Positions 9,515-47,692 of a stretch of DNA of 64,000 nt are shown piece by piece. A program made the translations under genes and the position numbers. The DNA lies in NCBI GenBank assembly GCA_041650515.1, contig JBAZLA010000003.1, positions 30,819 to 94,818 on the forward strand, written 5' to 3'. Numbering within the stretch: the stretch's first letter is position 1; each line of letters begins with the position of its first letter. Below the pieces are notes generated by a model. That model saw only the letters and a list, made by a program, of their open reading frames with translations, was not told where the DNA came from and searched no databases. This DNA comes from Patescibacteria group bacterium. GTDB taxonomy: Bacteria; Patescibacteriota; Patescibacteriia; JACRDY01.

Positions 9515-9643
9515 CCCCACACCAACTTTGAATCCGTGTTATTCAAGTCTAAGTAAAATTTAAGATTAATCTTGTAAGTTTGGTTTGATCTAGAATTAAA
9601 AATTGGTGTGGGGGCTGGCTCAACGCTTGAGTAAAATAATTTT

Positions 9644-9720
9644 TGGTTGCGGGGGCGGGATTTGAACCCGCGACCTCCAGGTTATGGGCCTGGCGAGCTG
9701 CCGGACTGCTCTACCCCGCT
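9644..9720 (-). tRNA. tRNA-fMet (CAT), initiator-like
   Basis: Reverse complement AGCGGGGTAGAGCAGTCCGGCAGCTCGCCAGGCCCATAACCTGG..GCGGGTTCAAATCCCGC..ACCA. Unpaired 1:72, A11:U24 and a G-C-rich anticodon stem are initiator features. Confidence 0.65.
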
Positions 9721-9783
9721 ATAAGGATAAGATTTACAGTATAGCTTGATTTAGCCGAAATGCCAAGTTAAGAGATTTTAACT

Positions 9784-9911
9784 TGGTGCCGGGGGAGGGA
9801 ATCTCGCTCGCTCCGACTCGCGGTCCCGGGCGCTGCGCGCACTCGCGCCCTTTCAATCTTGATGCCAAGATTGAAACCCTCATGGACTTGCGTCCACACG
9901 ATTTTGAGTCC
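9784..9911 (-). pseudogene. Degenerate partial tRNA-Leu copy (anticodon loop through 3' end) with a ~75-nt GC-rich insertion in the T-loop
   Basis: 9784-9803 and 9878-9911 are identical to the 3' half of the adjacent tRNA-Leu. The D-arm and anticodon stem are not conserved. The insert is tcgctcgctccgactcgcggtcccgggcgctgcgcgcactcgcgccctttcaatcttgatgccaagattgaaa. Confidence 0.5.
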
Positions 9912-9956
9912 CTACAAACCTTTCACGGGGCGGGCGTGCGCTAGTTTGTCGGCAAT

Positions 9957-10044
9957 TGGTGCCGGGGGAGGGAATCGAACCCTCATGGACTTGCGTCCAC
10001 ACGATTTTGAGTCGTGCGCGTCTACCAATTCCGCCACCTCGGCC
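9957..10044 (-). tRNA. tRNA-Leu (CAA), class II with long variable arm
   Basis: Reverse complement GGCCGAGGTGGCGGAATTGGTAGACGCGCACGACTCAAAATCGTGTGGACGCAAGTCCATGAGGGTTCGATTCCCTCCCCCGGCACCA. Confidence 0.8.
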
Positions 10045-26388: not shown

Positions 26389-26446
26389 TGTCATCCCGAC
26401 CCCTTCACTGCGCTCAGGGTAAACTCGGAGTGGAAGGATCGGCTGG
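26389..26446. repeat. GC-rich palindromic intergenic element, family A (GTCATCCCGA...GGATCGGCTGG)
   Basis: tgtcatcccgaccccttcactgcgctcagggtaaactcggagtggaaggatcggctgg. Related copies lie at 26542-26596 (inverted) and 31788-31863. Confidence 0.55.
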
Positions 26447-26541
26447 TTTAATCAATAATACTAGCCAAATTTTCAAATTCTAGGTTCACGGATTTAATTA
26501 AACTTATTTTTTTCTCTCGACGCCAGTATATTATTGGGGTA

Positions 26542-26596
26542 CCCAGCCGATCCCTCGACTTCAGCCCGCCGAAGCGGGCTTCCGCTCGGGATGACA
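26542..26596. repeat. GC-rich palindromic intergenic element, family A, inverted copy
   Basis: Reverse complement gtcatcccgagcggaagcccgcttcggcgggctgaagtcgagggatcggctgg. Same termini as the 26389 copy, different internal hairpin. Confidence 0.55.
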
Positions 26597-28288: not shown

Positions 28289-29938
28289 ATGTCTAAGTGT
28301 AAAAACTGTAATCAAGAATTTACCATTACGGCGACGGATCGACAGTATTACCTTAAAATTGGCGTGCCTGAGCCGACTTGGTGCCCAGATTGTCGACTAT
28401 GGCGTAAGATGGTTTGGCGTAATTTTAGTCGGCTTTATCAGCGAAAAAGTTCGTTGTCTGGCCAAAATATTATTTCTGAATATTCTGATGATAAGGAGTT
28501 AGTTGTTTATTCTGTACCGGAGTGGCAAAATGACAATTTTGATCCATTAACTTATGGTCGTGATTTTGATTTTTCTCGTCCGTTTTTCCAACAGTGGGCA
28601 GAATTATTTCACACTACGCCTTTGCCAGCCGCTTTTAACGACAAGACCGAAAATTGCGAATATAACCTAAAAGTAGCTACTTCGAAGAACTGTTATTACT
28701 CTTATTCTATTCACCGCTCCGAAGATGTTTATTATTCTCTACGGACTAATAAAGCTTTTCGTTGCTTTGATTCTAGTTATATTTTTAGTGAGTCGGATTG
28801 CATGTATCAATCACACTATTGTCATAATTGTAGTTTTAGTAGCAATCTATATTGGGGTAAGGGCTGTTCGGATTGCCATTACTGCGTTGATTGTAGCGGT
28901 TGCCAGAGCTGTTTGTTCTGCAATAATTTACGTAATCAACATTACTGCATTTTTAATAAACAAGTGAGCCAAGAACAATTTGAGCAGGAAAAAGCCAAAT
29001 TAATCAATGGCTCATATGAACAGCATCTAAAAAATTTGGAGATATTCAAAAAAGAAGTTTATAGTAAGGCTATTTTTACCGTGCGTAAAGTTAGCTGTGA
29101 AAATTGCCAAGGTGATAGTTTGACCAACTGCGCTAACCTAAAAAATAGTTTTAACGTCGGTAATGTTACTGACGGGGCTAATTTATATGAAATGTCACCG
29201 TGGAAGGGTAATCATGATTCCATGGATATTTATATCGGCGGCGTCGGCGAACTAATGTATGAGTGTTCGGCGTATAGTGGTAATTCTTATGATGCCCAAT
29301 TTTGTCTTAATGGTCGAGACGCTTCATTTCTGCGTTATTGTTTTCATTGTTTTCATAGCCAATATTGTTTTGGCTGTATTTCCTTGAAGGGAAACAAATT
29401 TTGTATTCTCAACAAACAATATTCAGAAGATGAATATCCCAAAATGGTAGCCAAAATTAAAGACCATATGATAAAGACAGGAGAATATGGTGAGTTTTTC
29501 CCACCCGAGCTTTCGCCTTTTGGTTATAATGAGACCACAGCTAATGATCAGTTTCCGATGACTAAAGATGAAGTGTTAGCTCGAGGTTTAAAATGGAAAG
29601 AAAAGGATCTACGCGAGTATTTGCCAGCCACTCACAAATTATCCGACAATATTAAAGATACTCCAGATATGGTTATGTCAGCGATTTTGGCTTGTGAGTT
29701 GTGCGGTAAAAACTATAAAATTATTAAGCCAGAGTTAGATTTCCATCGGCAATTTAATTACGCTTTACCGCGCCATTGCCCGGGTTGTCGTCTTAATGAT
29801 TTACGTCAATACCAGCGAGAATTGCGACTTTATAGTCGAGAGTGTGTCAAATGTGGGACGAAAGTTGATATTAGTATTCCATCAGGTCGTCCAGAGAAAA
29901 TTTATTGCGAAGAGTGTTACCAAAAAGAAATTTATTAA
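28289..29938 (+). CDS. Cys-rich double-zinc-ribbon repeat protein, paralog 1 of 9 (family unassigned)
   Basis: N-terminal CKNCNQEF...GVPEPTWCPDCR...RN; central CxxC-rich repeats; FCILNKQYSEDEY; GEYGEFFP..SPFGYNET; C-terminal CELCGKNYKIIKPELDF...PRHCPGCR...YCEECYQKEIY. Confidence 0.75.
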   Translation: MSKCKNCNQEFTITATDRQYYLKIGVPEPTWCPDCRLWRKMVWRNFSRLYQRKSSLSGQNIISEYSDDKELVVYSVPEWQNDNFDPLTYGRDFDFSRPFFQQWAELFHTTPLPAAFNDKTENCEYNLKVATSKNCYYSYSIHRSEDVYYSLRTNKAFRCFDSSYIFSESDCMYQSHYCHNCSFSSNLYWGKGCSDCHYCVDCSGCQSCLFCNNLRNQHYCIFNKQVSQEQFEQEKAKLINGSYEQHLKNLEIFKKEVYSKAIFTVRKVSCENCQGDSLTNCANLKNSFNVGNVTDGANLYEMSPWKGNHDSMDIYIGGVGELMYECSAYSGNSYDAQFCLNGRDASFLRYCFHCFHSQYCFGCISLKGNKFCILNKQYSEDEYPKMVAKIKDHMIKTGEYGEFFPPELSPFGYNETTANDQFPMTKDEVLARGLKWKEKDLREYLPATHKLSDNIKDTPDMVMSAILACELCGKNYKIIKPELDFHRQFNYALPRHCPGCRLNDLRQYQRELRLYSRECVKCGTKVDISIPSGRPEKIYCEECYQKEIY

Positions 29939-29944
29939 ACCTCA

Positions 29945-30021
29945 CGTCATTGCGAGCGGAGCGAAGCAATCTCCCGGATAATCCACCAGATTGCTTCGTC
30001 GCTACGCTCCTCGCAATGACG
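29945..30021. repeat. GC-rich palindromic intergenic element, family B (GTCATTGCGAG...CTCGCAATGAC)
   Basis: cgtcattgcgagcggagcgaagcaatc-tcccggataatccaccag-attgcttcgtcgctacgctcctcgcaatgacg between paralogs 1 and 2. Confidence 0.55.
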
Positions 30022-30031
30022 AGCAAATACT

Positions 30032-31723
30032 ATGCAATGTAAAAACTGCAATCAACAATTCACCATCTATCCCGAGGATAAAGAATTCTACGGTAAGATT
30101 GGTGTGCCCGAGCCGAAGCTTTGTCCTCTCTGCCGACAGCAGCGGCGGTTAGCTTGGCGTAATGAACGAATCTTTTACCAAAGAAATTCTGATTTGAGTG
30201 GTAAAAATATTCTTTCAACTTACTCTACTGACAAACCATTTCCGGTATATGAACAAGAAGAATGGTGGTCGGACGATTGGGATCCTTTTAATTATGGTCG
30301 AGAAATTGATTGGCAGCGGCCGATTTTGGATCAAATTATGGAACTTTTTAATCAAGTGCCTCGGCCGGCGTTATTTAATAGTAATAATGTCAATTCTTAT
30401 TATGGTAACCTGCAGGAAGGTAATAGTAATTGCTATATGGAAGTAGGTAGTGGTTGGTCAGAAGCTTGTTTTTATGGAACGATTAATGTCCACTGTAAAG
30501 ATATTGTGGATTCCCACTATTGTCATAAGTGTGAAGTGTCTTATAGTCTAATTAATTGCGACAATTGTTATCATTGCGTTAATTGTCAGGATTGCCATAA
30601 TAATATTGATTGTTATTTTTGTTTTAATTGCCGCGGTTGTAATAATTGTTTTGGTTGTGTTGGTTTACGCAATGCCAAATATTGTTGGCTAAATGAACAA
30701 ATCGCTCCAGAAGAATTTAATCGGCGGTTGGAAAATTCAGGCAAATACTCTTATTTTTCAGAATTAAAAAATAAGTTCAGTCAGTTTAAAAAAGAGCAGA
30801 TTCACGTTTATTCCATTTTAATCAAATGTGAACGCAGTACCGGCGATCACTTAACTTATTGTACTAATGTCAAACACGGTTTTGATTTAGTTGAGGCAGT
30901 TAATTGTGCTTATTTTTTTTGCGGTGAAAAAATTACTGATTCATATGATTGTGATGTCGCCGGTTGGCCGGCTAGCTGGCTTTATGAAATTGTTGGTGCC
31001 GATACTTCTTCTCATATGGTTTTTTCAGCTTTTTGTTGGCATAATAATTTTTTGCAATACTGCCACAGCTGCTTTGGTTGTCAGGATATTTTTGGTTGTT
31101 TTGCTCTGCATAACCGGAAATTCTGTATTCTCAATAAACAATACAGTGAAGAAGAATACAAAAGACTTTTGCCAAAGATAATTGATAAAATGAAGGCGGA
31201 TGGCGATTATGGTGAATTTTTTCCTGTTAAATTTTCACCCTATGCTTATAATGAGACCGTGGCCCAGGAATACTATCCACTGACCAGAGAAGAAGTTCTA
31301 AAACGTGGCTGGAAATGGCAGGATAATTTACCGAGTACTAAGGGCAAAGAGACAATTAAAGCCGAAGATTTGGCTGATGATATTAAGGATATTAAGGCCG
31401 AGATAACAAAAGAAATTTTGGTTTGTCTGACCTGTGGCCGCAATTATAAGGTTATTCCCCAGGAAGTTGATTTTTACCAAAAGATGAATTTACCCTTGCC
31501 GCGCCAATGTCCTTATTGTCGGCACATGGAGCGGATCCATCTGCGTAATCCGCGCCGGCTTTATTCGCGCCAGTGTATGTGTGATAATATAAAACACGGT
31601 CACGCCAGCAACGCTTCGCGTAGCGATGCGGGCAGGTGTGCTAACCAATTTGAAACACCCTATGCGCCTGATCGCGAGGAACTGGTTTATTGTCAGGAAT
31701 GTTACGAGAAGGAGATCTATTGA
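30032..31723 (+). CDS. Cys-rich double-zinc-ribbon repeat protein, paralog 2
   Basis: Same architecture; ends ...YCQECYEKEIY. Confidence 0.75.
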   Translation: MQCKNCNQQFTIYPEDKEFYGKIGVPEPKLCPLCRQQRRLAWRNERIFYQRNSDLSGKNILSTYSTDKPFPVYEQEEWWSDDWDPFNYGREIDWQRPILDQIMELFNQVPRPALFNSNNVNSYYGNLQEGNSNCYMEVGSGWSEACFYGTINVHCKDIVDSHYCHKCEVSYSLINCDNCYHCVNCQDCHNNIDCYFCFNCRGCNNCFGCVGLRNAKYCWLNEQIAPEEFNRRLENSGKYSYFSELKNKFSQFKKEQIHVYSILIKCERSTGDHLTYCTNVKHGFDLVEAVNCAYFFCGEKITDSYDCDVAGWPASWLYEIVGADTSSHMVFSAFCWHNNFLQYCHSCFGCQDIFGCFALHNRKFCILNKQYSEEEYKRLLPKIIDKMKADGDYGEFFPVKFSPYAYNETVAQEYYPLTREEVLKRGWKWQDNLPSTKGKETIKAEDLADDIKDIKAEITKEILVCLTCGRNYKVIPQEVDFYQKMNLPLPRQCPYCRHMERIHLRNPRRLYSRQCMCDNIKHGHASNASRSDAGRCANQFETPYAPDREELVYCQECYEKEIY

Positions 31724-31730
31724 CCCCACT

Positions 31731-31949
31731 GTCATTCTGAACCCTTCGTTCCACCCAGGGCAGGCTTCGCAAGGGTCATCTCAATTTGTCATCCCGAGCG
31801 AACCCCGAGTGAGCTCCGCCAATTGGCGGAGCGAATCGAGGGGGAAGTCGAGGGATCGGCAGGGAATATAGTAAATCAAGTAATTATTATCTTAACCCTA
31901 ATATTATTATAAATTTTCATCCGATCCTTCGCTACGCTCAGGATGACAA
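31731..31949. repeat. Composite spacer holding three family-A palindromic elements (31731-31775, 31788-31863, inverted 31921-31949)
   Basis: gtcattctgaaccc...; gtcatcccgagcgaaccccgagtgagctccgccaattggcggagcgaatcgagggggaagtcgagggatcggcaggg; ccgatccttcgctacgctcaggatgac (reverse complement gtcatcctgagcgtagcgaaggatcgg). Confidence 0.5.
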
Positions 31950-31959
31950 ATAAAACCCT

Positions 31960-33645
31960 ATGCCGACTTGTAAAAACTGTAACCAAGAGTTTACTATTTA
32001 CCCCGAAGATAAAGAATATTATCAGCGTTTCGGCGTGCCCGAACCAACCTGGTGTCCGACCTGTCGAGAGATGCGGCGCTGGGTTTTTCGCAATACTAAG
32101 ACTCTTTATTCGCGGCAATGCGATTTGTGTCATAAAGATGTTATCTCGGTTTATCCTCAGGAGACGTCCTACACGGTTTATTGTCCTGATTGTTGGTACT
32201 CGGATAGATGGGATGGACAAAAATATGCTCAGGATTTTGATTATTCCCAGCCATTTTTTCCTCAATTTGCCGAGCTTCAGCTAAAGGTGCCTCGGATTAG
32301 CAACTATAATAACCGCAATACTGTTAATTGTGATTATTGCAATGCGGCCATTGATTCTAAAAATTGTTATCTTTTATTTTCCACCTCTCAAGATGAAGAT
32401 TGTTACTATGGTTATAAAGTGATTAACAGCAAAGATTGTCTAGATACTCTGGGTGTATCTTACTGTGAGCTGTGTTATCAATGTGTCGATTGTCTGCGTT
32501 GTTTTAATGTTGCTTATGCCCAATATGCCACTGATTGTCATGATGCTGCTTGGTTATTTAATTGTTCCAACTGTCATGATTGTTTTATGTGTGTTAATTT
32601 GAAAAGTAAAGAATATTGTTTTCTTAATCAACCTTTAACAGCAGCCGAATATAAAAAGAAGATTAGTGATTGGCAGCAGGGGAGCTATCAAGTTGTCCAA
32701 AAATATTTGGCTGAATTTCGAAAACTAAAACTAAATTCGATTTATCGTTTTTCTGAGCAACATAATTGCACTAATTGTTTTGGCAATAATATCATTACTT
32801 CGAAAAATTGTTTTTATTGTTTTGACATTGCTAATGGTAATGGTGATCGTTATTTTTCTGATTCGGTGATTAATACCGCCGACTGTATGGACAGCACTAT
32901 TGGTTCGATTGATAATGAGTTGATCTATGAATGCCTCAGCATTATTAATAGTTACCGGGTCCATTTCTGTACTTACACTTGGTATAGTAATTTTATGTAT
33001 TATTGTGATCATTTTTTGGCCGGCGGTAGTTATTGTTTCGGTTGTACGGCGCTTAAAAAAGCCAAATATTGTATTTTAAATAAGCAATTCAGTGAAGAGG
33101 AATATCAGAAACAAGTTGATAAAATAATTAGCCACATGCAAAAAACCGGCGAGTGGGGACAATTTTTCCCAGTGGCGATGTCGCCGTTTGCTTATAATGA
33201 AACTTCGGCTATGGATCATTTTGCTTTAACTAAAGAGGAAGTTTTAGCCAAAGGCTGGCGCTGGAAAGATGACTTGCCGGGCATTTTTGGTAAAGAAACA
33301 ATCAAAGCTGACAGTTTGTCTGATAACATCAAAAAAATCGATAATAAAATTTTAAAAGAAACGATCGCCTGTATCGACTGCGCCCGGAATTACAAAATTA
33401 TTAAACCGGAGTTGAGTTTTTATCAAAAGCAAAATTTGCCCTTGCCCCGCCAGTGTCCTGATTGTCGCTATGTTAATCGGTTTAAACAGCGCAATCCGCA
33501 TAAGCTTTGGCCCCGCCAGTGTATGTGCGAGCAGTCGGAACATGGCCATACTGGCCGCTGTTCGAACGAGTTTCAAACCAGTTATGCGCCGGATCGGCCA
33601 GAAAAAGTTTATTGCGAGGAATGTTATCGGAAGGAAGTGTATTAA
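31960..33645 (+). CDS. Cys-rich double-zinc-ribbon repeat protein, paralog 3
   Basis: MPTCKNCNQEFTIYPEDKEYYQRFGVPEPTWCPTCR...; ends YCEECYRKEVY. Confidence 0.75.
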   Translation: MPTCKNCNQEFTIYPEDKEYYQRFGVPEPTWCPTCREMRRWVFRNTKTLYSRQCDLCHKDVISVYPQETSYTVYCPDCWYSDRWDGQKYAQDFDYSQPFFPQFAELQLKVPRISNYNNRNTVNCDYCNAAIDSKNCYLLFSTSQDEDCYYGYKVINSKDCLDTLGVSYCELCYQCVDCLRCFNVAYAQYATDCHDAAWLFNCSNCHDCFMCVNLKSKEYCFLNQPLTAAEYKKKISDWQQGSYQVVQKYLAEFRKLKLNSIYRFSEQHNCTNCFGNNIITSKNCFYCFDIANGNGDRYFSDSVINTADCMDSTIGSIDNELIYECLSIINSYRVHFCTYTWYSNFMYYCDHFLAGGSYCFGCTALKKAKYCILNKQFSEEEYQKQVDKIISHMQKTGEWGQFFPVAMSPFAYNETSAMDHFALTKEEVLAKGWRWKDDLPGIFGKETIKADSLSDNIKKIDNKILKETIACIDCARNYKIIKPELSFYQKQNLPLPRQCPDCRYVNRFKQRNPHKLWPRQCMCEQSEHGHTGRCSNEFQTSYAPDRPEKVYCEECYRKEVY

Positions 33646-33646
33646 T

Positions 33647-35290
33647 ATGCCAATTTGTACCAATTGTCAAAAAGAATTTGTCGTTCTACCTAAAGAAAAA
33701 GAGTTTTTGGATAAACACTACTTATCAATACCCAAGGTTTGTCCTTTTTGTCGGCAGGTTTTTCGTTATGCTTCGCGGAATGAATATTATCTTTATCTAC
33801 GCCGTTGCTCTCAGTGTCAGAAAGAGATTGTTTCTTATATCTCGCCCGACAAACCTTTGGTAGTTTATTGCTCATCGTGCTATTGGTTGGATAGTTGGTC
33901 GGGAACTGATTATGGCATTGATTATAATTCTAGTTTATCGGTTTTTGATCATTTAAAAGCGCTGCACCTAAAAGTGCCCCATTTATCCGGTCGGATAATC
34001 CAGTCGCAGAACTCTGATTACACTAATTCTTCCAGTCACAATAAAGATTGCTACCTTAGCTTCCGAGTCCATTATTGCGAGGGCGTCTTTAATTCCTATT
34101 GGATAATTGAAAGTAAGGATTGTAGCGATTGTTTAAAAGCAACCAAAAATGAACTTTGTTACCAATGCGTTGATTGTCATCGTAATTATAATTGCCAGTA
34201 TTGTTTTAATTGTTATGATTCCCTAGATTGCAGCGGCTGTGTTGATTGTCGCAATTGCCAAGCGTGCCATCTTTGTTCCAATTTAAGAAACCGCCGCTAT
34301 TGTTATCAAAATAAACAGCTTAATAGAGACGAGTATGAAAGATTAGTTCAGCCTTTATATACATACAGCCAACAACAAAAGTTTGTTTGTGCCTGGAAAG
34401 AAATAATAGATCAAGCAATTTATAGTGCTACTAATCAGATCAATTCTGTAAATTGTTCTGGCGATAATTTATTAAATTGTAAAGATTGCTACTCGGCTTT
34501 TGACTTAGTTGGTTGTGAAAATTGTATTTATTTACTCGATGCTTTAAATATCAAGGATTCAGTTGATGTTTATAGTGCTGGCGTGGGAGTTGGTGCAGAG
34601 AATGTTTATAATTCTTGGGGGGTGGGTAATAAGTCATCTAGTATTATTGCTTCTTTTGATACCCAAGAGGGGATGAGCAACGCGGAATATTGTCAACAAT
34701 GTTATTCTGGCCATGATCTTTTCGGTTGTGTTAATTTGCGTAATAAATCATTTTGCATTTTTAATAAACAATATCGCGAAGACGATTATTTTAAATTAAA
34801 AGAAAAAATTGTTAACCGATTAAAAGAAGAGGGGATTTATGGCGCTTTTCAGCCGCCAGAGTATAGTTTATTTGGTTATAATGAATCACCCGCTATGGGT
34901 TATTTACCCCTAACTAAAGAAGAAGTTTTAGCTAAAGGCTGGCGCTGGCACGATCAGGAACAAAAAGAGTATAGTGAATCTAATTATCAAATTCCCGATA
35001 ATATCCGCCAAGTTTCAGATGAAATTACCAAAGAAGCTTTAGCCTGCACTCAGTGCGGTCGCAATTACAAAATAATTTCTTCAGAATTAGATTTTTACCG
35101 TAAATTTAATTTACCAATTCCCCGCCAGTGTTTTTATTGCCGACATACCGAGAAAATTAATCTGCGCAATCCGCTTAGTTTGCACAAAGTTGATTGTGCT
35201 CAGTGTGGCCGAGAAGTTGATACTTCTTTTCCCACAGGCACCAAGAAAAAAATTTACTGCCAAGAGTGTTATCAGAAGGAGATATATTAA
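33647..35290 (+). CDS. Cys-rich double-zinc-ribbon repeat protein, paralog 4. ATG one base after the paralog 3 stop (TAATATG).
   Basis: MPICTNCQKEFVVLPKEKEF...; ends YCQECYQKEIY. The track ORF 33470.. is an upstream in-frame extension overlapping paralog 3. Confidence 0.75.
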   Translation: MPICTNCQKEFVVLPKEKEFLDKHYLSIPKVCPFCRQVFRYASRNEYYLYLRRCSQCQKEIVSYISPDKPLVVYCSSCYWLDSWSGTDYGIDYNSSLSVFDHLKALHLKVPHLSGRIIQSQNSDYTNSSSHNKDCYLSFRVHYCEGVFNSYWIIESKDCSDCLKATKNELCYQCVDCHRNYNCQYCFNCYDSLDCSGCVDCRNCQACHLCSNLRNRRYCYQNKQLNRDEYERLVQPLYTYSQQQKFVCAWKEIIDQAIYSATNQINSVNCSGDNLLNCKDCYSAFDLVGCENCIYLLDALNIKDSVDVYSAGVGVGAENVYNSWGVGNKSSSIIASFDTQEGMSNAEYCQQCYSGHDLFGCVNLRNKSFCIFNKQYREDDYFKLKEKIVNRLKEEGIYGAFQPPEYSLFGYNESPAMGYLPLTKEEVLAKGWRWHDQEQKEYSESNYQIPDNIRQVSDEITKEALACTQCGRNYKIISSELDFYRKFNLPIPRQCFYCRHTEKINLRNPLSLHKVDCAQCGREVDTSFPTGTKKKIYCQECYQKEIY

Positions 35291-35296
35291 ACCCTG

Positions 35297-35393
35297 CGTC
35301 ATTGCGAGGAGCTCCGACGCAAAGTCGGAGCGACGAAGCAATCTGGTGGATTATCTCGGAGATTGCTTCTCCGCCTTCGGCGGATCGCAATGA
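35297..35393. repeat. GC-rich palindromic intergenic element, family B, opposite orientation to the 29945 copy
   Basis: gtcattgcgaggagctccgacgcaaagtcggagcgacgaagcaatc-tggtggattatctcgga-gattgcttctccgccttcggcggatcgcaatgac. The central 17 bp is the reverse complement of the 29945 centre. Confidence 0.55.
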
Positions 35394-35405
35394 CGATGAA
35401 ATATT

Positions 35406-37085
35406 ATGCCAACTTGCAAAAATTGCCAAAAGGAGTTCATTATTGGCCTGATTGGTCAGCGGATTTTAGCTACGCTCAAATTTCCCGAGCCGGCGGTTTG
35501 CGATGTTTGCGCGATGCGGCTGATGATGGCTTATCGCAATGAGCGGACTTTTTATCCGCGGCAGTGCGATTCGTGCCATAAACAGATTATTAGTATGTAT
35601 CCGCAAAAAACGCCGTTTACTGTTTACTGTCGTGATTGTTGGTGGGGCGACAGTTGGGGCGGTTTAAATTTTAGTCGAGGATATAGCGGACCGGAGAATT
35701 TTTTTATTGAGCTCAAAGAGCTCCAGCGGCAAGTGCCCCGCGAAGCTCTAGTCAACCTTAACAGTCTGGACTGCGAATACAGCAATCATATCCGTGATTC
35801 TAAAAGTTGCTATATGTGTTCGCTCTGTTCCGACCAGTGTGAAGAATGTTTTCATTGCTATTGGATTGTGACAGTTAAAGATTCGGCTGATTGCTACTAC
35901 GGCCGTGATTGTGAGCGTTGCTATTTTTGTGTGGTTATTTGGCGGAGTTATAATTGTTCTTATTTATTAGAAGCTGAAGATTGTTTAGATTGCCATTATT
36001 GTTATGACCTGCGTGGCTGTAAAAATTGTTTTCTTAGTAGCAACCTGCGCAATCAATCTTATGTTTTTGCCAATAAACAATTAACCAAGGCAGAATATGA
36101 AGCCAAAGTTAAAGGATTGCGGCTAGGCAGTTATGCTCAGTCGCAGGAATATTGGCAAAAGTGGCAGGAATTGATCAAAAATTCCTTACACCAATATTCT
36201 TATCAAACTAAATGCGAAAACTGTACCGGCGACAATATGCAGAACTGCGTTAACGTTGAGCTGGGCTATAATACTTTTGAAACCGAGAATGCTTGGAATT
36301 CAGCCAGCCTGCTTTTCGCCCGTAATGTTTTTAATGGTTTTGCGATTGGCAGCCAACCAGTTGATTGGGCGAGCAATGTTGCGGTTATTAAGGGCGGCAG
36401 TCAGGTAGTTAGCTGCTATAATACGGTTTTCTCCAGTGATATTTATTTTTGTGAAAATTCGGTTTCTTGTCTGGATTGCTTAGGTTGTATTGGATTGCAC
36501 AAAAAAAAGTTTTGTATTTTAAACAAGCAGTACAGTGAGGACGAATATTATAAGATTAAAAAGGAACTTATTGAATATTGGACCAAGACTGGCCTAATCT
36601 CGGAATTTTTGCCTCAGGCAATGGCGGCTTTTGCTTACAACGAAACCGCGGCCCAGGATTTTTATCCGATGACTAAAGAAGAAGCCATTAAGTTTGGCTA
36701 TCGTTGGCAGGCAGAAATGCCGGGAACTTTTGGTAAAGAAACGTTTGAAGCGGAACAGATTCCGGATGATATTAACGAAGTTAAAGAGGATATTACTGAT
36801 CAAGTTTTAAGCTGTACAAAGTGCGGAAAAAACTATAAGGTAATTAAACAAGAGTTGAAATTGTATCGAGCATTGAATATTCCCATACCAAGAATTTGTC
36901 AGCATTGTCGTCATCGCCAACGTTTGGACCTAATGGGGGATCGTAATCTAACCGAGCGGCAGTGTGATTGTCAGTCAACTAGCCATAAACATGATGGTCG
37001 ATGTTCGAATCGGCTGGTTACCAAATATAAAACCGGAGAAAAGAATGTTTATTGCGAGGAGTGCTATCAAAAGGAAATATATTAA
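35406..37085 (+). CDS. Cys-rich double-zinc-ribbon repeat protein, paralog 5
   Basis: MPTCKNCQKEFIIG...; C-terminal CTKCGKNYKVIKQEL...YCEECYQKEIY. Confidence 0.75.
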   Translation: MPTCKNCQKEFIIGLIGQRILATLKFPEPAVCDVCAMRLMMAYRNERTFYPRQCDSCHKQIISMYPQKTPFTVYCRDCWWGDSWGGLNFSRGYSGPENFFIELKELQRQVPREALVNLNSLDCEYSNHIRDSKSCYMCSLCSDQCEECFHCYWIVTVKDSADCYYGRDCERCYFCVVIWRSYNCSYLLEAEDCLDCHYCYDLRGCKNCFLSSNLRNQSYVFANKQLTKAEYEAKVKGLRLGSYAQSQEYWQKWQELIKNSLHQYSYQTKCENCTGDNMQNCVNVELGYNTFETENAWNSASLLFARNVFNGFAIGSQPVDWASNVAVIKGGSQVVSCYNTVFSSDIYFCENSVSCLDCLGCIGLHKKKFCILNKQYSEDEYYKIKKELIEYWTKTGLISEFLPQAMAAFAYNETAAQDFYPMTKEEAIKFGYRWQAEMPGTFGKETFEAEQIPDDINEVKEDITDQVLSCTKCGKNYKVIKQELKLYRALNIPIPRICQHCRHRQRLDLMGDRNLTERQCDCQSTSHKHDGRCSNRLVTKYKTGEKNVYCEECYQKEIY

Positions 37086-37088
37086 AAT

Positions 37089-38744
37089 ATGCCCGTTTGT
37101 CGACAATGTAAAAATTCGTTTGAATATCATCAGTCAGATCTTTTGTTTTATAAAAAGATTGATGTACCATCGCCCTTAGATTGCCCGGATTGTCGGCATC
37201 GTCAACGATCGGTTTGGCGTAATTCTTGTAAACTTTATCAGCGGCGATGTGATTTATGCAAAAAAAATATTGTTTCGGTTTTTTCAGCCGATAAGCCATA
37301 TTTAGTTTATTGTCATGATTGTTGGTTTTCAGATAAATGGGATGGCACTAGCTATAGTCGTGATTTTGATTTTTCTCGTCCATTTTTTTCTCAATTTGAA
37401 GAATTGGTCCTCGCCGCTCCTCAGTTGGCCATCAATAATGTTAATTCAGTTAATTCGGAATATACTCACCATGCTTCACGGAATAAAAATTGTTATTTGC
37501 AATTTGAAGGTTCGACAGAATGTGAAGATTGTTATTATGGTTGGGCATCATTTAGATCAAAAGATTGTATTGATGTAGTTTTTTGTTATGATTCTGAACT
37601 CTGTTATGAGTGTTGTGATATTGAGAATTGCTATGATTGTTCCTTTACTGATTATTCGCGTGGCTGTCACGATTGTTATTTTTGTTATGATTGTGTTGGT
37701 TGTACCAATTGTTTTGGTTGTGTCAATTTACGCAATGTCAAAAATTATTTATGGAATAAACCAGCCAGCCCGGAGGAGATTAGTCGAATTAAAGAGGGAT
37801 TAGCTGCTTTCTCGGCCGCGGCTGATATTAGAAAAAAATTTATTGATATTAAGGCGTTAGCCGTGGTGGCGCCAGCTCATAGCTTTAAGATAACTAATTC
37901 CACCGGTGATTATATTCGTTATTGCAAAAATAGCCATGATATTTATGATCTTTATAATGTTGAAGATTGCGGTTATGTTATCAATGGTGAAAGTATCAAA
38001 GATGCTTATGACTGCAGTGGCTACGGTGGTACACCCAGCGAATTAGCTTATCAATGTATCTCCACCGGTCGTGGTTCTTATGGTACCTTTTTTGATTCTT
38101 TGACCTGGGAAAGTCGAAACGTCTGGTATAGCCATTGTATTTTTACTTGTCAAGAAATTTTTGGTTGTGCTAGTTTGCATCGTAAAAAATATTGCCTTTT
38201 TAATAAACAATATAATGAAGATGAATATACTGAGTTGAAGGATAAGATAGTTAAACACATGAAACAGACCGGAGAATGGGGAGAATTTTTTCCTTACCAA
38301 CTGTCTTTGTTTGGTTATAATGAAAGTCGGTCACAGCTCGATTTGCCATTAACTAAAGAACAAGCATTAAAGTTTGGCGCTAAATGGAAAGAAGAAGATA
38401 GCGGCGCTTTTGGTCGGGAGACTGCTAGCTGGGATAGAGTTCCTGAATCAATTAAAGAAATTCGAGAAGACATTAGTTCTGAAATTTTAACCTGTAGCCA
38501 GTGTTCCCGTAATTATAAAATTTTAAAACCAGAATTTAATTTTTATCAACGCCAAAGTATTGCCTTGCCGCGTTCTTGTCCTGATTGTCGCTTAGAGCGC
38601 CGGTTAAATAGCCGAAATCCCAAGCGGTTATGGCGTCGTCAATGTATGCATGAAGGCTGCCAGAACGAATTTGAGACCACTTATGCGCCGGATCGACCGG
38701 AGAAAGTTTATTGCCAGGAGTGCTATCAAAAAGAAATATATTAA
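37089..38744 (+). CDS. Cys-rich double-zinc-ribbon repeat protein, paralog 6
   Basis: 3-nt spacer after paralog 5. MPVCRQCKNSFEYHQSDLLFYKKIDVPSPLDCPDCR...; ends YCQECYQKEIY. Confidence 0.75.
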   Translation: MPVCRQCKNSFEYHQSDLLFYKKIDVPSPLDCPDCRHRQRSVWRNSCKLYQRRCDLCKKNIVSVFSADKPYLVYCHDCWFSDKWDGTSYSRDFDFSRPFFSQFEELVLAAPQLAINNVNSVNSEYTHHASRNKNCYLQFEGSTECEDCYYGWASFRSKDCIDVVFCYDSELCYECCDIENCYDCSFTDYSRGCHDCYFCYDCVGCTNCFGCVNLRNVKNYLWNKPASPEEISRIKEGLAAFSAAADIRKKFIDIKALAVVAPAHSFKITNSTGDYIRYCKNSHDIYDLYNVEDCGYVINGESIKDAYDCSGYGGTPSELAYQCISTGRGSYGTFFDSLTWESRNVWYSHCIFTCQEIFGCASLHRKKYCLFNKQYNEDEYTELKDKIVKHMKQTGEWGEFFPYQLSLFGYNESRSQLDLPLTKEQALKFGAKWKEEDSGAFGRETASWDRVPESIKEIREDISSEILTCSQCSRNYKILKPEFNFYQRQSIALPRSCPDCRLERRLNSRNPKRLWRRQCMHEGCQNEFETTYAPDRPEKVYCQECYQKEIY

Positions 38745-38745
38745 T

Positions 38746-40380
38746 ATGACTAATTGCAAAAATTGTAACCAGCCATTTACCATTTATCCTGAGGATCAAA
38801 CATTTTACAGCAAGATTGGTGTATCAGAGCCAACAGAGTGTCCTGATTGCCGTCAACAGCGAAGGATTGCTTGGCGTAATTTTACTAATCTTTATGTTCG
38901 TCAATGTGAGCTGACCGGTAAAGACGTCGTTAGCCGTTTCAGCCCGCAGAGCAAAATTAAGGTCATAAATATTTATGATTGGAATTCCGATAAGTGGGAT
39001 CCGATCCGTTATGGCCGCGATTATGATCTGAGCCGGTCTTTTTTTGAACAATTTGTTGAGCTTTATAAAGATATACCACACTCAGCGATTTGGACTAATA
39101 ATTGTCATAATTGTGACTATACTAATTTATCGGCCTATTCTAACAATTGTTATATGGTTTTTGGTTGCGTTGGTAATGAAGATTGTTATTATGGTCATAT
39201 TGTTTGGAACTCTCAGGATTGCCGGGAATGTCTGTATATTCGTAAATGTGAATTATGCTTTAAGTGTATTGATTGTAACGAATCTTATGGGCTTTTTTGG
39301 TGTAGTGACTGTAGCGGCTGCAACGACTGTAAGTATTGTTATTATTGCAAAGGCTGCCAGGATTGCGTGGGTTGTTACGGTTTGATTAATCAGCATCAAC
39401 ACGTTTTGAATAAACCTTGTGCTAATGATGAAGAATATCATCGTGAGGTTGAAAAGTTTATGGCTCTTGGCGAGGCGGTGAGACAAGCTAAGATTAATGA
39501 GCTTAGAAAAGTTATGCCGGTTCGGGAAAGTACCATCATCGGTTGTGTAAATTGTACTGGCAACTATATTTATCGTTCTAAAAATTGCCAAGATTGTTAT
39601 GACACCAAGGTCTCTGAAGATACAAGATATTGCTATACTCTTCAGAATGGGACAGAGACTTATGATTGTTGTTACACCGCCTGGGAAATTGAGTTGTCTT
39701 ATAATATCTTGGCCAGCTATGGCTATCGTTTACTCTGCTGCCAGGGTTGTTTGGAAAATTCTAGCGAGTTAGATTATTGCCAAGAATGCAACGCAATTAA
39801 GAATTGTTTTGGCTGTATTGGTTTGCACAACAAAGAGCAATATTATATTTTGAACAAAAAATATTCTGAAGCAGAATATAAAGAATTAAGAGATAAAATT
39901 ATTAGTGCTCTAACGGTGAGTGGAGAATGGGGAAGTTTTTTTCCAATTGCCTGTTCGCCCTTTGGCTATAATGAGACTATGGCAGCGGAGTATTATCCAC
40001 TGATCAAGGAAGCGGCGTTAGCTAAAGGGTATAATTGGCTTGATCCGGATCAGCGTGATTATCAAGAGCAAACTTATCAAGTTCCAATCAAGATTGAAGA
40101 GGTGCAGGATGATGTTTTAACAGCAGTTTTAGCTTGCGAGCGTTGTCGTCGTAACTATAAAATTATTAAACAAGAATTAGATTTTTACCGTAAGTACGGT
40201 CTGCCTCTTCCTCGTAAATGTTTCCATTGCCGTCATGCTGCGCGGATGGAGAAACGCAACCCGCGTAAATTGTTTGAGCGTTCCTGCGCTCATTGTAATA
40301 AGACTATCCGGACTACTTATGCGCTGGATCGACCGGAGAAAGTTTATTGTGAGGAGTGCTATAATAGAGAAGTTTATTAA
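38746..40380 (+). CDS. Cys-rich double-zinc-ribbon repeat protein, paralog 7 (TAATATG junction with paralog 6)
   Basis: MTNCKNCNQPFTIYPEDQTFYSKIGVSEPTECPDCR...; ends YCEECYNREVY. Confidence 0.75.
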   Translation: MTNCKNCNQPFTIYPEDQTFYSKIGVSEPTECPDCRQQRRIAWRNFTNLYVRQCELTGKDVVSRFSPQSKIKVINIYDWNSDKWDPIRYGRDYDLSRSFFEQFVELYKDIPHSAIWTNNCHNCDYTNLSAYSNNCYMVFGCVGNEDCYYGHIVWNSQDCRECLYIRKCELCFKCIDCNESYGLFWCSDCSGCNDCKYCYYCKGCQDCVGCYGLINQHQHVLNKPCANDEEYHREVEKFMALGEAVRQAKINELRKVMPVRESTIIGCVNCTGNYIYRSKNCQDCYDTKVSEDTRYCYTLQNGTETYDCCYTAWEIELSYNILASYGYRLLCCQGCLENSSELDYCQECNAIKNCFGCIGLHNKEQYYILNKKYSEAEYKELRDKIISALTVSGEWGSFFPIACSPFGYNETMAAEYYPLIKEAALAKGYNWLDPDQRDYQEQTYQVPIKIEEVQDDVLTAVLACERCRRNYKIIKQELDFYRKYGLPLPRKCFHCRHAARMEKRNPRKLFERSCAHCNKTIRTTYALDRPEKVYCEECYNREVY

Positions 40381-44255: not shown

Positions 44256-44349
44256 TATGCGGTATACAGTATATAGGGGCTAAGTCCAACAATCCGTGGA
44301 AATCAATTCCTGCATACTGTATACTAAGACCCGTATACTGCTAGAAAAT

Positions 44350-46023
44350 ATGCCTAAGTGCAGAAAATGTAACCAAGAATTTATTATTTCTGATTTTGAG
44401 ATAAAATTTTTAGATCGGATTAGTCCGGTTATCGGCGGTCGGAAATATCAGATTCCTCAGCCGGTTTTTTGTTCGGAGTGTCGTCTACGTTTTCGGACGG
44501 TTCATCGTAATGAGGCCTATCTATTTAAGAATGTTTCAGCCAAAAGCGGCCGGGAAATCATTTCTTTGTATTCGCCGGAAATGCCGTGGAATAAAGAATT
44601 AAAACTTTATACTCCAGAAGAGTGGTGGCAAGATGATTGGGACGGCCTTGATTATGGTCGTGATTTTGATTTCTCGCGGCCGTTTTTTGAACAGTTTAAC
44701 GAATTAGCTCGAGCCGTGCCGCGGTTAGCGTTAATGATCAGCAATTGCCAAAACTCCGACTATACTACTGGGACTGGTTATTGCAAAAACTGCTATCTCG
44801 TAAATTGTTCGGAAAATGATGAAGATTGTTATTATGGTAAGCTGATTCAGAGCAGCCGTGATATTATGGATTCAGATTTTGTTTACAAATCGGAGCTCTG
44901 CTACGGTTGTTTTAATATTACCGAATGTTATCATTGCTTGTATCTTTCTTATGGTTTACATTGTCACGATTGTTATTTTTCGGAAAATTTACATGGTTGT
45001 AGCAGCTGTCTTTTTTGTACCAATCTGACAAACCAAGAATATTGCATTCGGAACAAATCGGTGACTAAAGAAGATTTTGAAAAAGCCAAAGATGAGGTTT
45101 TAGGTTCACGGACTAAGGTTAGCCAGGCGGTTAAGATCCTCAATGAATTGCGTCAAAAACGCATTCATAAGTATGCAGCGGTAGTTAAGTGTCAAAATTC
45201 AACTGGCGATTTTTTGACCAATTGTAAAAATTGTACAGATTGCTATGACTGTAATGATAGCGAGGATTGCAAATACGTTGTTGTCGGAGTTAACGTCAAA
45301 GATTTGGTTGATTGTTCAAATATGTATTTAAAGCAGGAGCTGGCTTATCAGGTTTTGGGCACAATTGATATTTACGACGTTATATTTTCTCTTTATATTT
45401 TTTATAGTCAACATATCATGTACAGCGAAAGTTGCTGGAGTAGTAAAAATTTATTTGGTTGCTGCGGCCTGCGCAATAAAGAGTATTGTGTTTTTAATAA
45501 ACAATATACTGAAGAGGAATATAATAAGCTGGTGCCTAGAATTATTGAACATATGCAAAAAACAGGTGAATGGGGCAATTATTTTCCTGCTCAATATTCG
45601 CCTTTTCCTTACAATCACACCGTAGCGCATGATTATTTATCGTTAACTAAAGAAGAGACGCTAGAACTTGGTTGTTATTGGTTGGAGGTTGGTGCTAAGG
45701 AAAAATTACCGGCCACCAGCGAACTACCTGATAAAATCAGCGAGGCGACTGATGGTGTGATTAATGAAATGTTTGCTTGCCGAGAATGCGGCCGTAATTA
45801 TAAAATTGTCAAACAAGAATTGATTCGTTTGCGTCAGTTGCAAATGCCGCTGCCAGATAAATGTTCTTATTGTCGCCAGGCCGAACGGATGCAGAAACGC
45901 AATCCGCGTCGGTTATATGATCGAGTTTGTAATAAATGTAGTAAAGAAATTAAAACCACTTATCCGCCAACCCGTCCGGAACAGATTTACTGTGAGGAGT
46001 GTTATCAGAAGGAGATTTATTAG
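44350..46023 (+). CDS. Cys-rich double-zinc-ribbon repeat protein, paralog 8
   Basis: MPKCRKCNQEFIISDFEIKFLDRISPV...; C-terminal CRECGRNYKIVKQEL...YCEECYQKEIY. The track ORF start 44296 is a likely upstream extension. Confidence 0.7.
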   Translation: MPKCRKCNQEFIISDFEIKFLDRISPVIGGRKYQIPQPVFCSECRLRFRTVHRNEAYLFKNVSAKSGREIISLYSPEMPWNKELKLYTPEEWWQDDWDGLDYGRDFDFSRPFFEQFNELARAVPRLALMISNCQNSDYTTGTGYCKNCYLVNCSENDEDCYYGKLIQSSRDIMDSDFVYKSELCYGCFNITECYHCLYLSYGLHCHDCYFSENLHGCSSCLFCTNLTNQEYCIRNKSVTKEDFEKAKDEVLGSRTKVSQAVKILNELRQKRIHKYAAVVKCQNSTGDFLTNCKNCTDCYDCNDSEDCKYVVVGVNVKDLVDCSNMYLKQELAYQVLGTIDIYDVIFSLYIFYSQHIMYSESCWSSKNLFGCCGLRNKEYCVFNKQYTEEEYNKLVPRIIEHMQKTGEWGNYFPAQYSPFPYNHTVAHDYLSLTKEETLELGCYWLEVGAKEKLPATSELPDKISEATDGVINEMFACRECGRNYKIVKQELIRLRQLQMPLPDKCSYCRQAERMQKRNPRRLYDRVCNKCSKEIKTTYPPTRPEQIYCEECYQKEIY

Positions 46024-46024
46024 T

Positions 46025-47692
46025 ATGCCAAATTGTCAAAACTGCCAAAAAGAATTTAAGGTTTTTCCTGAAGAGCTGCCATTCTTTAAGAAAATGGATT
46101 TACCCTTGCCAAAACTCTGCCCAACTTGTCGGGCGCAACGGCGTTGGGCTTTTCGCAACCAAAGTAAGCTCTATAAGCGGAAATGCGATTTTACCGGCGA
46201 AAAGATGGTCTCACTTTATGCTGATGATTCGCCCTTTAAAGTGTATAAGGAAGATATTTGGTGGAGTGACAAGTGGGATCCGATGAGTTATGGTCGGGAG
46301 TTTGATTTTTCTCGTCCATTTTTTGATCAGTTCCACGATTTACGGTTGGCCGTGCCGCGGCGGGGGATGCAGCAGGATGGCACCAATACTAATTGCGATT
46401 ATACGACTTTTGGCATGAGTAATAAAAATTGTTACTTAGTTTTTGCTGGTTTTTATTGTGAAGATGTTTATTATTCGGCCTGGACCGGTATGTCGCGGGA
46501 TTGTCTGGATTGCTTAGTGGTGATAAACGGTGAATTAACCTACGAATGTGTAGAATGCACCAAATGTTATCATTGTCTTTATTGTAAAGATTGTGTTAAT
46601 TGTTTAGATAGTTATCTGTTGGAGAATTGCTCTAACTGCCAAAATTGCATTGCTTGTAAAAATTTACAGAATAAAAAGTATTACGTTTATAATCAAAAAG
46701 TCACGCCGGAGGAATTTGAAAAATTAAAGCAAAAATTAGAGACTGGTCCGGTAGATACCGAAAGAGAAAAATTCGATCAATGGAAATTAAGTTTTCCGTG
46801 TCGTTATACTCATATGGTCGCTTCGGAAAATTGCGACGGTGATTATATTGAGCACGGTAAAAATTGTCATGACTGCTTTGGTATTCTGCAAGGGGCGGAA
46901 AACTGTTGGCATTGTCAGATGACCGGCGCGCAAGCTAAGGAAGCAATTGATTGCTCGATGGCTGGCATGGATAGTCAATTAACTTATGAGCTACATGCTA
47001 GTGTTGGTGGTTATTATACGGCTTTTTGTAATTTTTCTCGTCATGGCAAAAATGTTTATTATTGCGATTCAATGAGTTCTTGCCAAGATTGTCTTGGCTG
47101 TATTGGTTTGCAGCACAAAAAGTTTTGTCTTTTGAATAAACAGTATAGCGCCGGAGAATATAGCCAGATGTTGCCGAAGGTCATTGAATATTTAAAAAAA
47201 ACCGGGGAGTGGGGAGAATTTTTTCCGATTAAGCACTCGCCCTTCCCTTTTAATGATACTTTGTCGCAAGAATTTTTTCCTATCAGCCGGGAGGAGGCGT
47301 TGGCCAAGAGTTATAGTTGGCGCGATGATGAAGACATAATTTACCAAAAACAAATCTATAAAGTTGATGCTGACATCACCAAAGTTAAAGATGATATTCT
47401 AGAAGCAGTTTTAGTCTGCCAGGGGTGTGGTAAAAATTATAAAATTATCCCGCAAGAATTAAGATTTTACCATAAGTTAAAAATAGCGATCCCCAAACTT
47501 TGTCCAGACTGTCGCCATACCCACCGAATGCGGCAAAGAAATCCGATGCAGTTGTATCACCGGCAATGTATGTGCGAGAGTACTAAACACGGCCATAAAG
47601 GTCGTTGTCCACAGGAATTTAAAACTACTTATGCCCTTGATCGCCAGGAATTGATTTACTGCGAAGAGTGTTATCAGAAAGAATTGTACTAA
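46025..47692 (+). CDS. Cys-rich double-zinc-ribbon repeat protein, paralog 9 (TAGTATG junction with paralog 8)
   Basis: MPNCQNCQKEFKVFPEELPFFKKMDLPLPKLCPTCR...; ends YCEECYQKELY. Confidence 0.75.
   Translation: MPNCQNCQKEFKVFPEELPFFKKMDLPLPKLCPTCRAQRRWAFRNQSKLYKRKCDFTGEKMVSLYADDSPFKVYKEDIWWSDKWDPMSYGREFDFSRPFFDQFHDLRLAVPRRGMQQDGTNTNCDYTTFGMSNKNCYLVFAGFYCEDVYYSAWTGMSRDCLDCLVVINGELTYECVECTKCYHCLYCKDCVNCLDSYLLENCSNCQNCIACKNLQNKKYYVYNQKVTPEEFEKLKQKLETGPVDTEREKFDQWKLSFPCRYTHMVASENCDGDYIEHGKNCHDCFGILQGAENCWHCQMTGAQAKEAIDCSMAGMDSQLTYELHASVGGYYTAFCNFSRHGKNVYYCDSMSSCQDCLGCIGLQHKKFCLLNKQYSAGEYSQMLPKVIEYLKKTGEWGEFFPIKHSPFPFNDTLSQEFFPISREEALAKSYSWRDDEDIIYQKQIYKVDADITKVKDDILEAVLVCQGCGKNYKIIPQELRFYHKLKIAIPKLCPDCRHTHRMRQRNPMQLYHRQCMCESTKHGHKGRCPQEFKTTYALDRQELIYCEECYQKELY

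Follow-up and report, generated by a model that had tools for sequence, protein, structure and literature searches.

The closest described counterparts of the elements treated here are the NTS repeats of Neisseria and the CGTC-tagged REPs. The single-domain GIY-YIG nuclease SsnA (94 aa) binds and cuts NTS, CGTCATTCCCGCGMAVGCGGGAATCYRG, in single-stranded form, whereas double-stranded DNA, RNA and the reverse strand are not substrates (Chenal 2025, PMC11893778). Cleavage takes place a few nucleotides 5' of the tag; the GTC that precedes the NTS palindrome is the most critical element for cutting, and the C right after the palindrome is the most critical for binding (PMC11893778). An ssnA gene usually has its own motifs on its flanks, and the Ssn system, which trims incoming DNA in Neisseria, reduces transformation by NTS-bearing DNA (PMC11893778).

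The CGTC-tagged REPs were described by Di Nocera (2013, PMC3733652) as hairpins with an unpaired CGTC, often TGTC and also CCTC, a stem of 8-9 bp that nearly always starts with A-T, T-A, a loop of 4-5 nt and a 3-nt tail that is mostly CCA. In that description they are found mainly as head-to-head dimers, often heterodimers, with spacers of 20-100 bp, and they are grouped in families CGTC-1 to CGTC-4, whose members include dRS3 of Neisseria and RPE-4 and RPE-6 of Rickettsia. Variable loops are noted there for the Bradyrhizobium CGTC REPs, and the families as described have neither a linked transposase nor a tyrosine transposase gene flanked by CGTC units (PMC3733652).

The window, that is the whole stretch of 64,000 nucleotides that was analysed, comes from a contig of 472.5 kb in a Patescibacteria MAG. 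We consider it quite probable that the GC-rich palindromic elements found in it are CGTC/TGTC-tagged REP hairpins of the NTS/SRM kind, arranged as head-to-head dimers and a mosaic, and that they are Ssn sites, either cognate or, in this genome, orphan.

Tagged hairpin units and their arrangement in the window

The initial annotation had reported two copies with shared inverted termini, and both are present, copy A at 29945-30021 and copy B at 35297-35395. The 11-nt termini of copy A are perfect (GTCATTGCGAG and CTCGCAATGAC), while copy B has the same left arm and agrees at 10 of 11 positions in the right arm. The inversion of the central 17-nt segment between the two copies is also borne out, segment 29972-29988 of copy A being the reverse complement of 35344-35360 of copy B at 15 of 17 positions. 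This segment is exactly the spacer that separates two hairpin units, and since each arm is a complete hairpin unit the termini do not correspond to transposon-type ends. For the sequence GTCATYSYGA the window has nine occurrences where 0.5 would be expected, a count reached by no shuffle, and all nine are confined to 26.4-35.4 kb. The elements were rightly described as intergenic and GC-rich, with 53-67% G+C compared with 39.6% for the window. In this region we identified nine tagged units in four intergenic regions, which are listed here together with their spacers.

26389-26440, + strand: TGTC-tagged CCC-class unit, partly degenerate (helix CCC vs AGG)
26441-26548, no strand: AT-rich spacer (about 29% G+C) flanked by two head-to-head CCC units, in the divergent region preceding the array
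26549-26596, - strand: TGTC-tagged CCC-class unit, inner hairpin AGCCCGC-TTCG-GCGGGCT
29945-29971, + strand: unit A-left, TGC class (C-GTC tag, ATTGC, GA, GCGGAGC mini-hairpin, GAA, GCAAT, C), fitting the family pattern
29972-29988, no strand: 17-nt spacer of head-to-head dimer A, tcccggataatccacca, reverse complement of the dimer B spacer (15/17)
29989-30021, - strand: unit A-right, TGC class, heterodimer partner with the longer inner hairpin GAGCGTAGCGAC
31730-31775, + strand: degenerate TGTC-tagged TCT-type unit, left end of the junction mosaic, kept in the L451 copies
31787-31857, + strand: TGTC-tagged CCC-class unit with a long inner hairpin
31858-31922, no strand: AT-rich spacer of the mosaic (about 15% G+C)
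31923-31948, - strand: basal 26-nt CCT-class unit TGTCATCCTGAGCGTAGCGAAGGATC
35297-35343, + strand: unit B-left, TGC class, long type, with the nested extra hairpin TCCGAC-GCAAA-GTCGGA
35344-35360, no strand: 17-nt spacer of dimer B, inverted relative to dimer A
35361-35395, - strand: unit B-right, TGC class, inner hairpin TCCGCC-GAAG-GCGGA

Read on the tagged strand, a unit starts with an unpaired (C/T)GTC, which is followed by a 5-bp helix (P1) in which the pairs A-T and T-A come first and three variable pairs after them. The 5' half of P1 leads into GA and then into an inner hairpin (P2) with a closing G:C pair; next come GA or GAA and the second half of P1, and the unit ends with an unpaired C right after the helix and a short tail. 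The units of the head-to-head pairs A and B are 26-47 nt long, and the shortest unit, TGTCATCCTGAGCGTAGCGAAGGATC, holds the whole plan within 26 nt. The tag is CGTC in four of the nine units and TGTC in five, the helix starts with AT in all of them, and the ATC end is found in eight, the exception being the degenerate unit 31730-31775. In unit A-left both the tag and the trailing C are as in NTS. The three variable pairs define the classes TGC/GCA (dimers A and B), CCC/GGG and CCT/AGG, to which the degenerate TCT copy has to be added. The copies with GTCATCCCGAG... ends, which had been set apart as a second, related family, are indeed related, but they represent the same unit with a different covarying helix and not a separate family.

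The pairing of P1 was evaluated in IMG/VR viral contigs, where matched halves were found in at least 120 stretches for TGC/GCA, at least 120 for CCT/AGG and 89 for CCC/GGG, so that the last two classes are as common as TGC. As a control, mismatched halves were searched and gave only 3 stretches for CCT with GCA and 7 for TGC with AGG. Since matched halves are common and mismatched ones rare, P1 is a real covarying helix. P2 is free in length and sequence with its pairing kept, the commonest form being G-CGNAG-C (58 of 184 units); the GCGNAGC DNA mini-hairpin is described as extraordinarily stable in the account given in PMC13037366. The position preceding GTC (-1) was T or C in 108/112, 107/110 and 184/188 units of three family samples. 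The 3' tail is CCA in most proteobacterial copies and CTC, CTG or CGG in the window.

Folding gave a divided answer. The two head-to-head dimers are stable as RNA (-40.9 and -59.9 kcal/mol) and also as DNA (-29.3 and -35.9 kcal/mol), in both cases far better than shuffles (z about -7 to -8), whereas single units did not fold significantly better than shuffles in nearest-neighbour calculations. Support for the hairpin of the single unit therefore rests on covariation. Nearest-neighbour energy tables may miss sheared G-A pairs and GNA loops.

Four head-to-head pairs are present in the window. Dimers A and B have a 17-nt spacer each, the pair 26389-26440 / 26549-26596 is separated by 108 nt and the pair 31787-31857 / 31923-31948 by 65 nt, both of these spacers being AT-rich. 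The partners of a dimer are unlike in P2, and the long-type partner is on the left in B and on the right in A, which means that the whole of B is inverted relative to A. The short flanks outside the two dimers keep the same orientation to the genes despite this inversion, and the dimer hairpins start 6-7 nt past stop codons. Elsewhere the units are found single or as head-to-head dimers, and 90 dimers with unlike partners were catalogued. Direct tandem TGC arrays, and not inverted dimers, were seen in L046 (2695-2818), L020 (28-101) and L127 (1372-1506), with periods of 33, 43 and about 50 nt.

The possibility that the elements are MITEs, which had also been raised, was considered and rejected in its strict sense, as the arms are independent hairpins without transposase-type ends and no target-site duplication was observed at the 90 dimers or at the window copies, the flanks of which only extend the palindrome by C...G. 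In related phage contigs both filled and empty sites were found, with boundaries that are not clean.

Compared with the described systems, the units share with the CGTC-tagged REPs the CGTC/TGTC tag, the A-T/T-A start of the stem, the 3-nt tail, the habit of forming head-to-head heterodimers with spacers of 20-100 bp and the lack of a linked transposase, and the initial suggestion of REP-like palindromes is thereby upheld. The hosts listed for those REPs also overlap with our hits in Bradyrhizobium, Micavibrio, Novosphingobium aromaticivorans and sphingomonads. They differ in range, as the hosts described by Di Nocera belong to 5 phyla and mostly to Alphaproteobacteria (PMC3733652), while the units were found here in more than 12 phyla, in viral contigs and in Patescibacteria. 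They differ also in the inner hairpin, which in many units reaches at least 30 nt against the loops of 4-5 nt in that description; the basal 25-26-nt units fit a stem of 8-9 bp with a loop of 4-5 nt only if the two G-A mismatches are counted as stem.

With NTS/SRM the window units have in common the 5' CGTC tag followed by AT, the hairpin, the C-Y-R-G after the helix and an orientation set by the flanks, as well as intergenic, clustered copies. At the level of the family, units flank a single-domain GIY-YIG gene of about 95 aa head to head, an association that was reproduced here for the TGC class. In contrast to the perfect 8-bp stem of NTS, the units described here have tandem G-A mismatches and a variable inner hairpin, they do not match the SRM pattern, and their host is a Patescibacteria MAG without an ssn gene in about 103 kb.

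The block 31730-31948, with its three tagged units and AT-rich spacer, is repeated elsewhere in the genome and in this recalls the BIMEs of E. coli and the NIMEs of Neisseria, from which it differs in being built of CGTC-type units, in a CPR genome and only at paralog junctions. Among the repeats of Bradyrhizobium, Br-REP2 when reversed (CGAGATTCCGGG...CCCCGGAATGA) looks like a TCC-class tagged unit, a connection that the account of this repeat in PMC5082802 does not draw; Br-REP1, as described in the same paper, was considered as a relative and is unrelated.

Spread of the units and their place in the paralog array

The initial annotation had recommended a search for copies elsewhere, and the motif proved to be widespread, so that the refuting outcome named there, a motif confined to this locus, did not occur. 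The pattern GTCATTGCGAG-N(5-30)-GAAGCAATC was found in at least 120 stretches of IMG/VR viral contigs and in at least 120 stretches of GTDB species genomes, and the matches listed cover more than 12 phyla. The GTDB hosts listed include Alpha-, Gamma- and Deltaproteobacteria, Chloroflexi, Bacteroidota, Cyanobacteria, Planctomycetota, Zixibacteria, Latescibacterota, Ignavibacteria, Firmicutes, Helicobacter rodentium and Patescibacteria. The unit is also present in plasmids from Novosphingobium, Methylosinus, Aulosira, Halomonas and Legionella, in none of whose records it is annotated. An identical unit is carried by Bradyrhizobium, Chloroflexi and phages.

Single units in other genomes are in sense orientation to the neighbouring genes in 52 cases and in antisense in 46, and they are found in convergent gene gaps 30 times and in divergent ones 13 times. 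Because the G-A/GNA features occur on one strand only and the orientation to transcription is random, recognition at the level of DNA and not of mRNA is indicated. Two viral contigs, L015 (7 units in 13 kb) and L036 (5 units in 6.6 kb), have a unit in almost all of their intergenic gaps, always on the same strand and adjoining ribosome-binding sites.

No Rfam match was obtained at the repeats, only three tRNAs of the window reaching the gathering score and nothing credible being found at E up to 10 in 26.3-35.5 kb, and NCBIfam models gave nothing on the translations that span the repeats. The literature, when searched by sequence strings, returned only primers and unrelated matches, the relevant papers having surfaced by keyword. 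A small ribozyme or k-turn, suggested by the hammerhead-like GA...GAA core, was also considered and discarded, as there is no CUGANGA core, Rfam is silent and the orientation to genes is random. Outside the repeat region, three minus-strand tRNA genes lie at 9441-10043, two of them separated by a 21-nt inverted repeat (9513-9533 / 9595-9615). At 543-592 there is a perfect loopless palindrome of 50 nt with 25-nt arms, preceded by AGTACAT/AGTACGT heptamer repeats and followed by TTTTT, which has the appearance of a strong terminator acting in both directions.

In about 103 kb of the MAG, the tagged units are found only at or beside the junctions of a family of Cys-rich zinc-ribbon proteins of about 550 aa. 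These are soluble proteins with treble-clef zinc ribbons at both ends, encoded in long tandem arrays (window 28289-40380 and 44296-47692; L451 10001-21671), and 4983 homologues at E <=1e-30 were found in Patescibacteria metagenomes. On a second contig the 31730-31948 mosaic is present at two further junctions and, in a short version, at a third. Comparison of three junctions gave 87-93% identity for the mosaic together with its flanks, tccccact and aaataaaaccct, against 57-72% for the adjacent 80 nt of coding DNA on each side. Elsewhere in these arrays there are empty junctions, which consist of TAA, 1-3 nt and ATG.

Since the proteins of the array are only 31-42% identical to each other, against 87-93% for the mosaic, the repeats arrived or were homogenised long after the gene duplications. 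They appear to be later arrivals at permissive stop-to-start gaps and not the cause of the amplification, a role that had been proposed for them as recombination sites and that these identities make unlikely. Orthologous arrays of other Patescibacteria have different hairpin repeats, and other Patescibacteria loci with TGC dimers do not have the Cys-rich zinc-ribbon family adjacent; the repeats are therefore not tied to this family in general. Unrelated hairpins were also seen at other paralog junctions (window 44262-44324; L451 11671-11771; L449 9898-10001 and 11647-11716), with arms of the GTATACAGTATATAGG...CCTGCATACTGTATAC type and, in L449, built from CACAGAT repeats, which indicates that hairpins at these junctions are a general habit and not specific to the CGTC type.

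Linkage to single-domain GIY-YIG nucleases

The positions that are critical for SsnA correspond to the invariant unpaired GTC and C of the window-type units. Motif scans and six-frame translations revealed, in a Planctomycetota MAG (L182), a 95-aa GIY-YIG ORF with a TGC unit on each side, head to head. Its product is a single-domain protein of 95 aa (Pfam GIY-YIG, E 6e-18), and 7999 of 8000 candidate relatives scored at E <=1e-5, their named hosts being Deltaproteobacteria, Chloroflexi, Anaerolineales and Marinimicrobia. The L182 protein is 44% identical (E 2e-26) to a 94-aa GIY-YIG ORF that is embedded in NTS repeats in the gonococcus and that, judged from its sequence and surroundings, is evidently the SsnA orthologue, which makes the L182 protein a candidate member of the Ssn clade, CDD cd10448.

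To evaluate this linkage, 80 metagenome loci, kept out of 589 confirmed relatives, were chosen by the L182 protein and not by the DNA motif. A GTCAT-TGC unit was found within 200 nt of the gene in 74 of the 80 loci, and in 50 of 73 a TGC unit was present on both sides of the gene, mostly on the (+) strand upstream and on the (-) strand downstream. The density of units was 3.17 per kb near the GIY-YIG gene and 0.24 per kb elsewhere in the same loci, and the partner nucleases of these loci share 60-72% identity. When 240 loci fetched by the motif were used instead, clustering of the neighbouring proteins gave only shared phage genes and no recurrent transposase; the ssn gene was missed by this approach because random unit loci rarely include that single gene. 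In viral contigs the TGC-clade nuclease is almost absent, with one IMG/VR locus compared with the at least 120 unit stretches found there.

In annotated isolates, homologues named 'GIY-YIG nuclease family protein' are flanked by tagged hairpins with lineage-specific stems in Rhizobium, Sinorhizobium, Azospirillum, Sphingobium and Photobacterium. The homologue of Spirosoma has flanks of the CCC class and that of Planktothrix flanks of the TCT and CCT classes, so that, together with the TGC flanks, an Ssn-type partner exists somewhere for each of the three helix classes seen in the window. In a Planktothrix agardhii plasmid (L536, NZ_LR882964.1, 17650-20313) the ssn-like gene and its TCT/CCT dimers lie between an MmeI-type restriction-modification gene and the DISARM gene drmA, and thus inside a defence island. 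In Photobacterium sp. GJ3 plasmid pGJ3-1 (L542), the hairpin beside the GIY-YIG gene, CGTCATTCCCGCGCAGGCGGGAATC, is identical to the NTS of Neisseria (L534, N. gonorrhoeae). This sequence identity points to horizontal transfer of enzyme and site together.

In the MAG itself, no small GIY-YIG or ssn gene was found in about 103 kb, comprising the window, 17 kb of added contig flanks and 21.7 kb of a second contig. This search was a profile search of six-frame translations for the window, L448-L452 and the other loci fetched by then, and relied on Pfam listings for the flanks L543 and L544.

The published SRM pattern, HGTCWYN(0-2)YYVSBRHN(0-5)WNVSBRGN(0-2)RNCYNB, was drawn from 29 genomes (PMC11893778). 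NTS matches this pattern, whereas no window unit and no TGC, CCT or CCC consensus does, and the G-A internal loop has no room in it. These three classes are thus outside what the SRM survey counted.

Proposed function, rival readings and meaning

The mechanism that we propose for these Ssn sites is that the tagged strand would fold when single-stranded, and that an Ssn enzyme would then bind the folded strand and cut it a few nucleotides upstream of the tag. The units of the window would be cognate or orphan sites of such an enzyme that spread into the permissive stop-to-start junctions of the paralog array, either along a route that depends on Ssn or through short-tract conversion from one junction to another; an effect on mRNA, if any, would be a by-product. 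By analogy with NTS and SsnA, we infer that TGC, CCC and CCT units would each be cut by their own Ssn clade, the helix triplet setting the specificity, and that the window copies would be sites or relics of an Ssn-type system. In the source organism the enzyme step is putative, as no ssn-like gene was found in about 103 kb, and in this MAG the window copies could have spread purely via recombination between conserved gene ends.

A different reading places the function in the mRNA of the array, where the hairpins would be 3'-exonuclease barriers, processing sites or causes of ribosome stalling near the stop codon, and would tune the output of the paralogs. It draws on the high stability of the dimers as RNA, on their start so close behind stop codons and on the preference for convergent over divergent gaps in other genomes, and it has precedents in E. 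coli, where REPs within 15 nt of the stop affect translation, and in the stabilisation of upstream mRNA by REPs (work cited in the account of PMC5082802). We nevertheless regard it as unlikely, because sense and antisense orientations are nearly balanced (52 vs 46), the tag and the G-A/GNA features are found on one strand only, the RNA form of NTS is not bound by SsnA (PMC11893778) and other junctions of the array function with a gap of 1-3 nt and no hairpin. That the elements are intrinsic transcription terminators partitioning the array, as had been suggested at the outset, can hardly be credited at all: the stems are stable, G+C-rich and intergenic, but they are never followed by a T-run, the 11 terminator-like calls in 26-36 kb all lie outside the elements, the orientation in other genomes is as even as just stated, and the genes downstream lack an obvious promoter.

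Two further readings concern the way in which the elements were copied. If the lineage had no partner enzyme, the units might be passengers of recombination in the paralog array, copied only by gene conversion or unequal crossing-over via the conserved zinc-ribbon gene ends. Their restriction to paralog junctions and the lack of an ssn gene in about 103 kb agree with this, as does the contrast between the mosaic (87-93%) and the coding DNA (57-72%), yet the drop of identity, which is sharp and falls exactly at stop and start codons, is explained by insertion of a discrete segment no less well than by conversion. We hold the passenger reading to be quite improbable, as it leaves unexplained both the arrival of a unit that recurs unchanged in Bradyrhizobium, Chloroflexi and phages and the coexistence of three helix classes. 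Mobilisation as REPINs by a RAYT, the HUH tyrosine transposase associated with the GTAG REPs of E. coli and Pseudomonas, would account for the same architecture of imperfect hairpins with an unpaired 5' tetranucleotide in intergenic, inverted doublets, and the GTAG system also resembles ours in the recognition of tagged hairpins as single-stranded DNA and in an enzyme gene flanked by its own repeats. Such a mobilisation has very little chance of being correct here, as the tag is CGTC/TGTC and not GTAG, the families described by Di Nocera have no tyrosine transposase flanked by CGTC units (PMC3733652), and no transposase recurred in the neighbour clustering, the consistent neighbour being a GIY-YIG gene and not an HUH enzyme. 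Moreover the REPIN-RAYT system is mostly vertically inherited, whereas the window-type unit is near-identical across phyla.

For the preferred reading as Ssn-type tagged hairpins, the structure is demonstrated by covariation, and the spread across phyla and the linkage to a GIY-YIG clade homologous to SsnA are established from the sequences compared here. The tagged-hairpin family as such was known; the host phylum, the abundance in viral contigs that are poor in the nuclease and the Ssn link of three helix classes missed by the pattern are new, and a link to a nuclease of single-stranded DNA was not anticipated in the initial annotation.

More tentatively, the hairpin and the GIY-YIG nuclease may together form a horizontally mobile element of single-stranded DNA, in which the gene with its two head-to-head hairpins would be autonomous and the lone units and dimers non-autonomous, colonising genomes that lack the enzyme, including those of phages and CPR bacteria. 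The dimers of the array would then also serve as 'cut here' marks, at which single-stranded recombination intermediates would be divided into cassettes of one gene each. Compatible with this possibility are the near-identical unit in more than 12 phyla, a mosaic younger than the surrounding genes, the filled and empty sites of phages, the 60-72% identity of the nuclease across 80 loci and the near absence of the TGC-clade nuclease from viral contigs, in which units are abundant.

The range of CGTC-REPs and SRMs is extended by these results to Patescibacteria and viral contigs. As the published SRM pattern misses at least three abundant helix classes, counts of Ssn sites that are based on it are probably too low. 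A repeat that annotation pipelines leave blank, and often translate into spurious small ORFs, now has a name and a partner that can be tested. In the organism studied here the repeats mark a fast-evolving paralog array, a parallel with the clustering of NTS around variable genes of Neisseria that we take as suggestive only.
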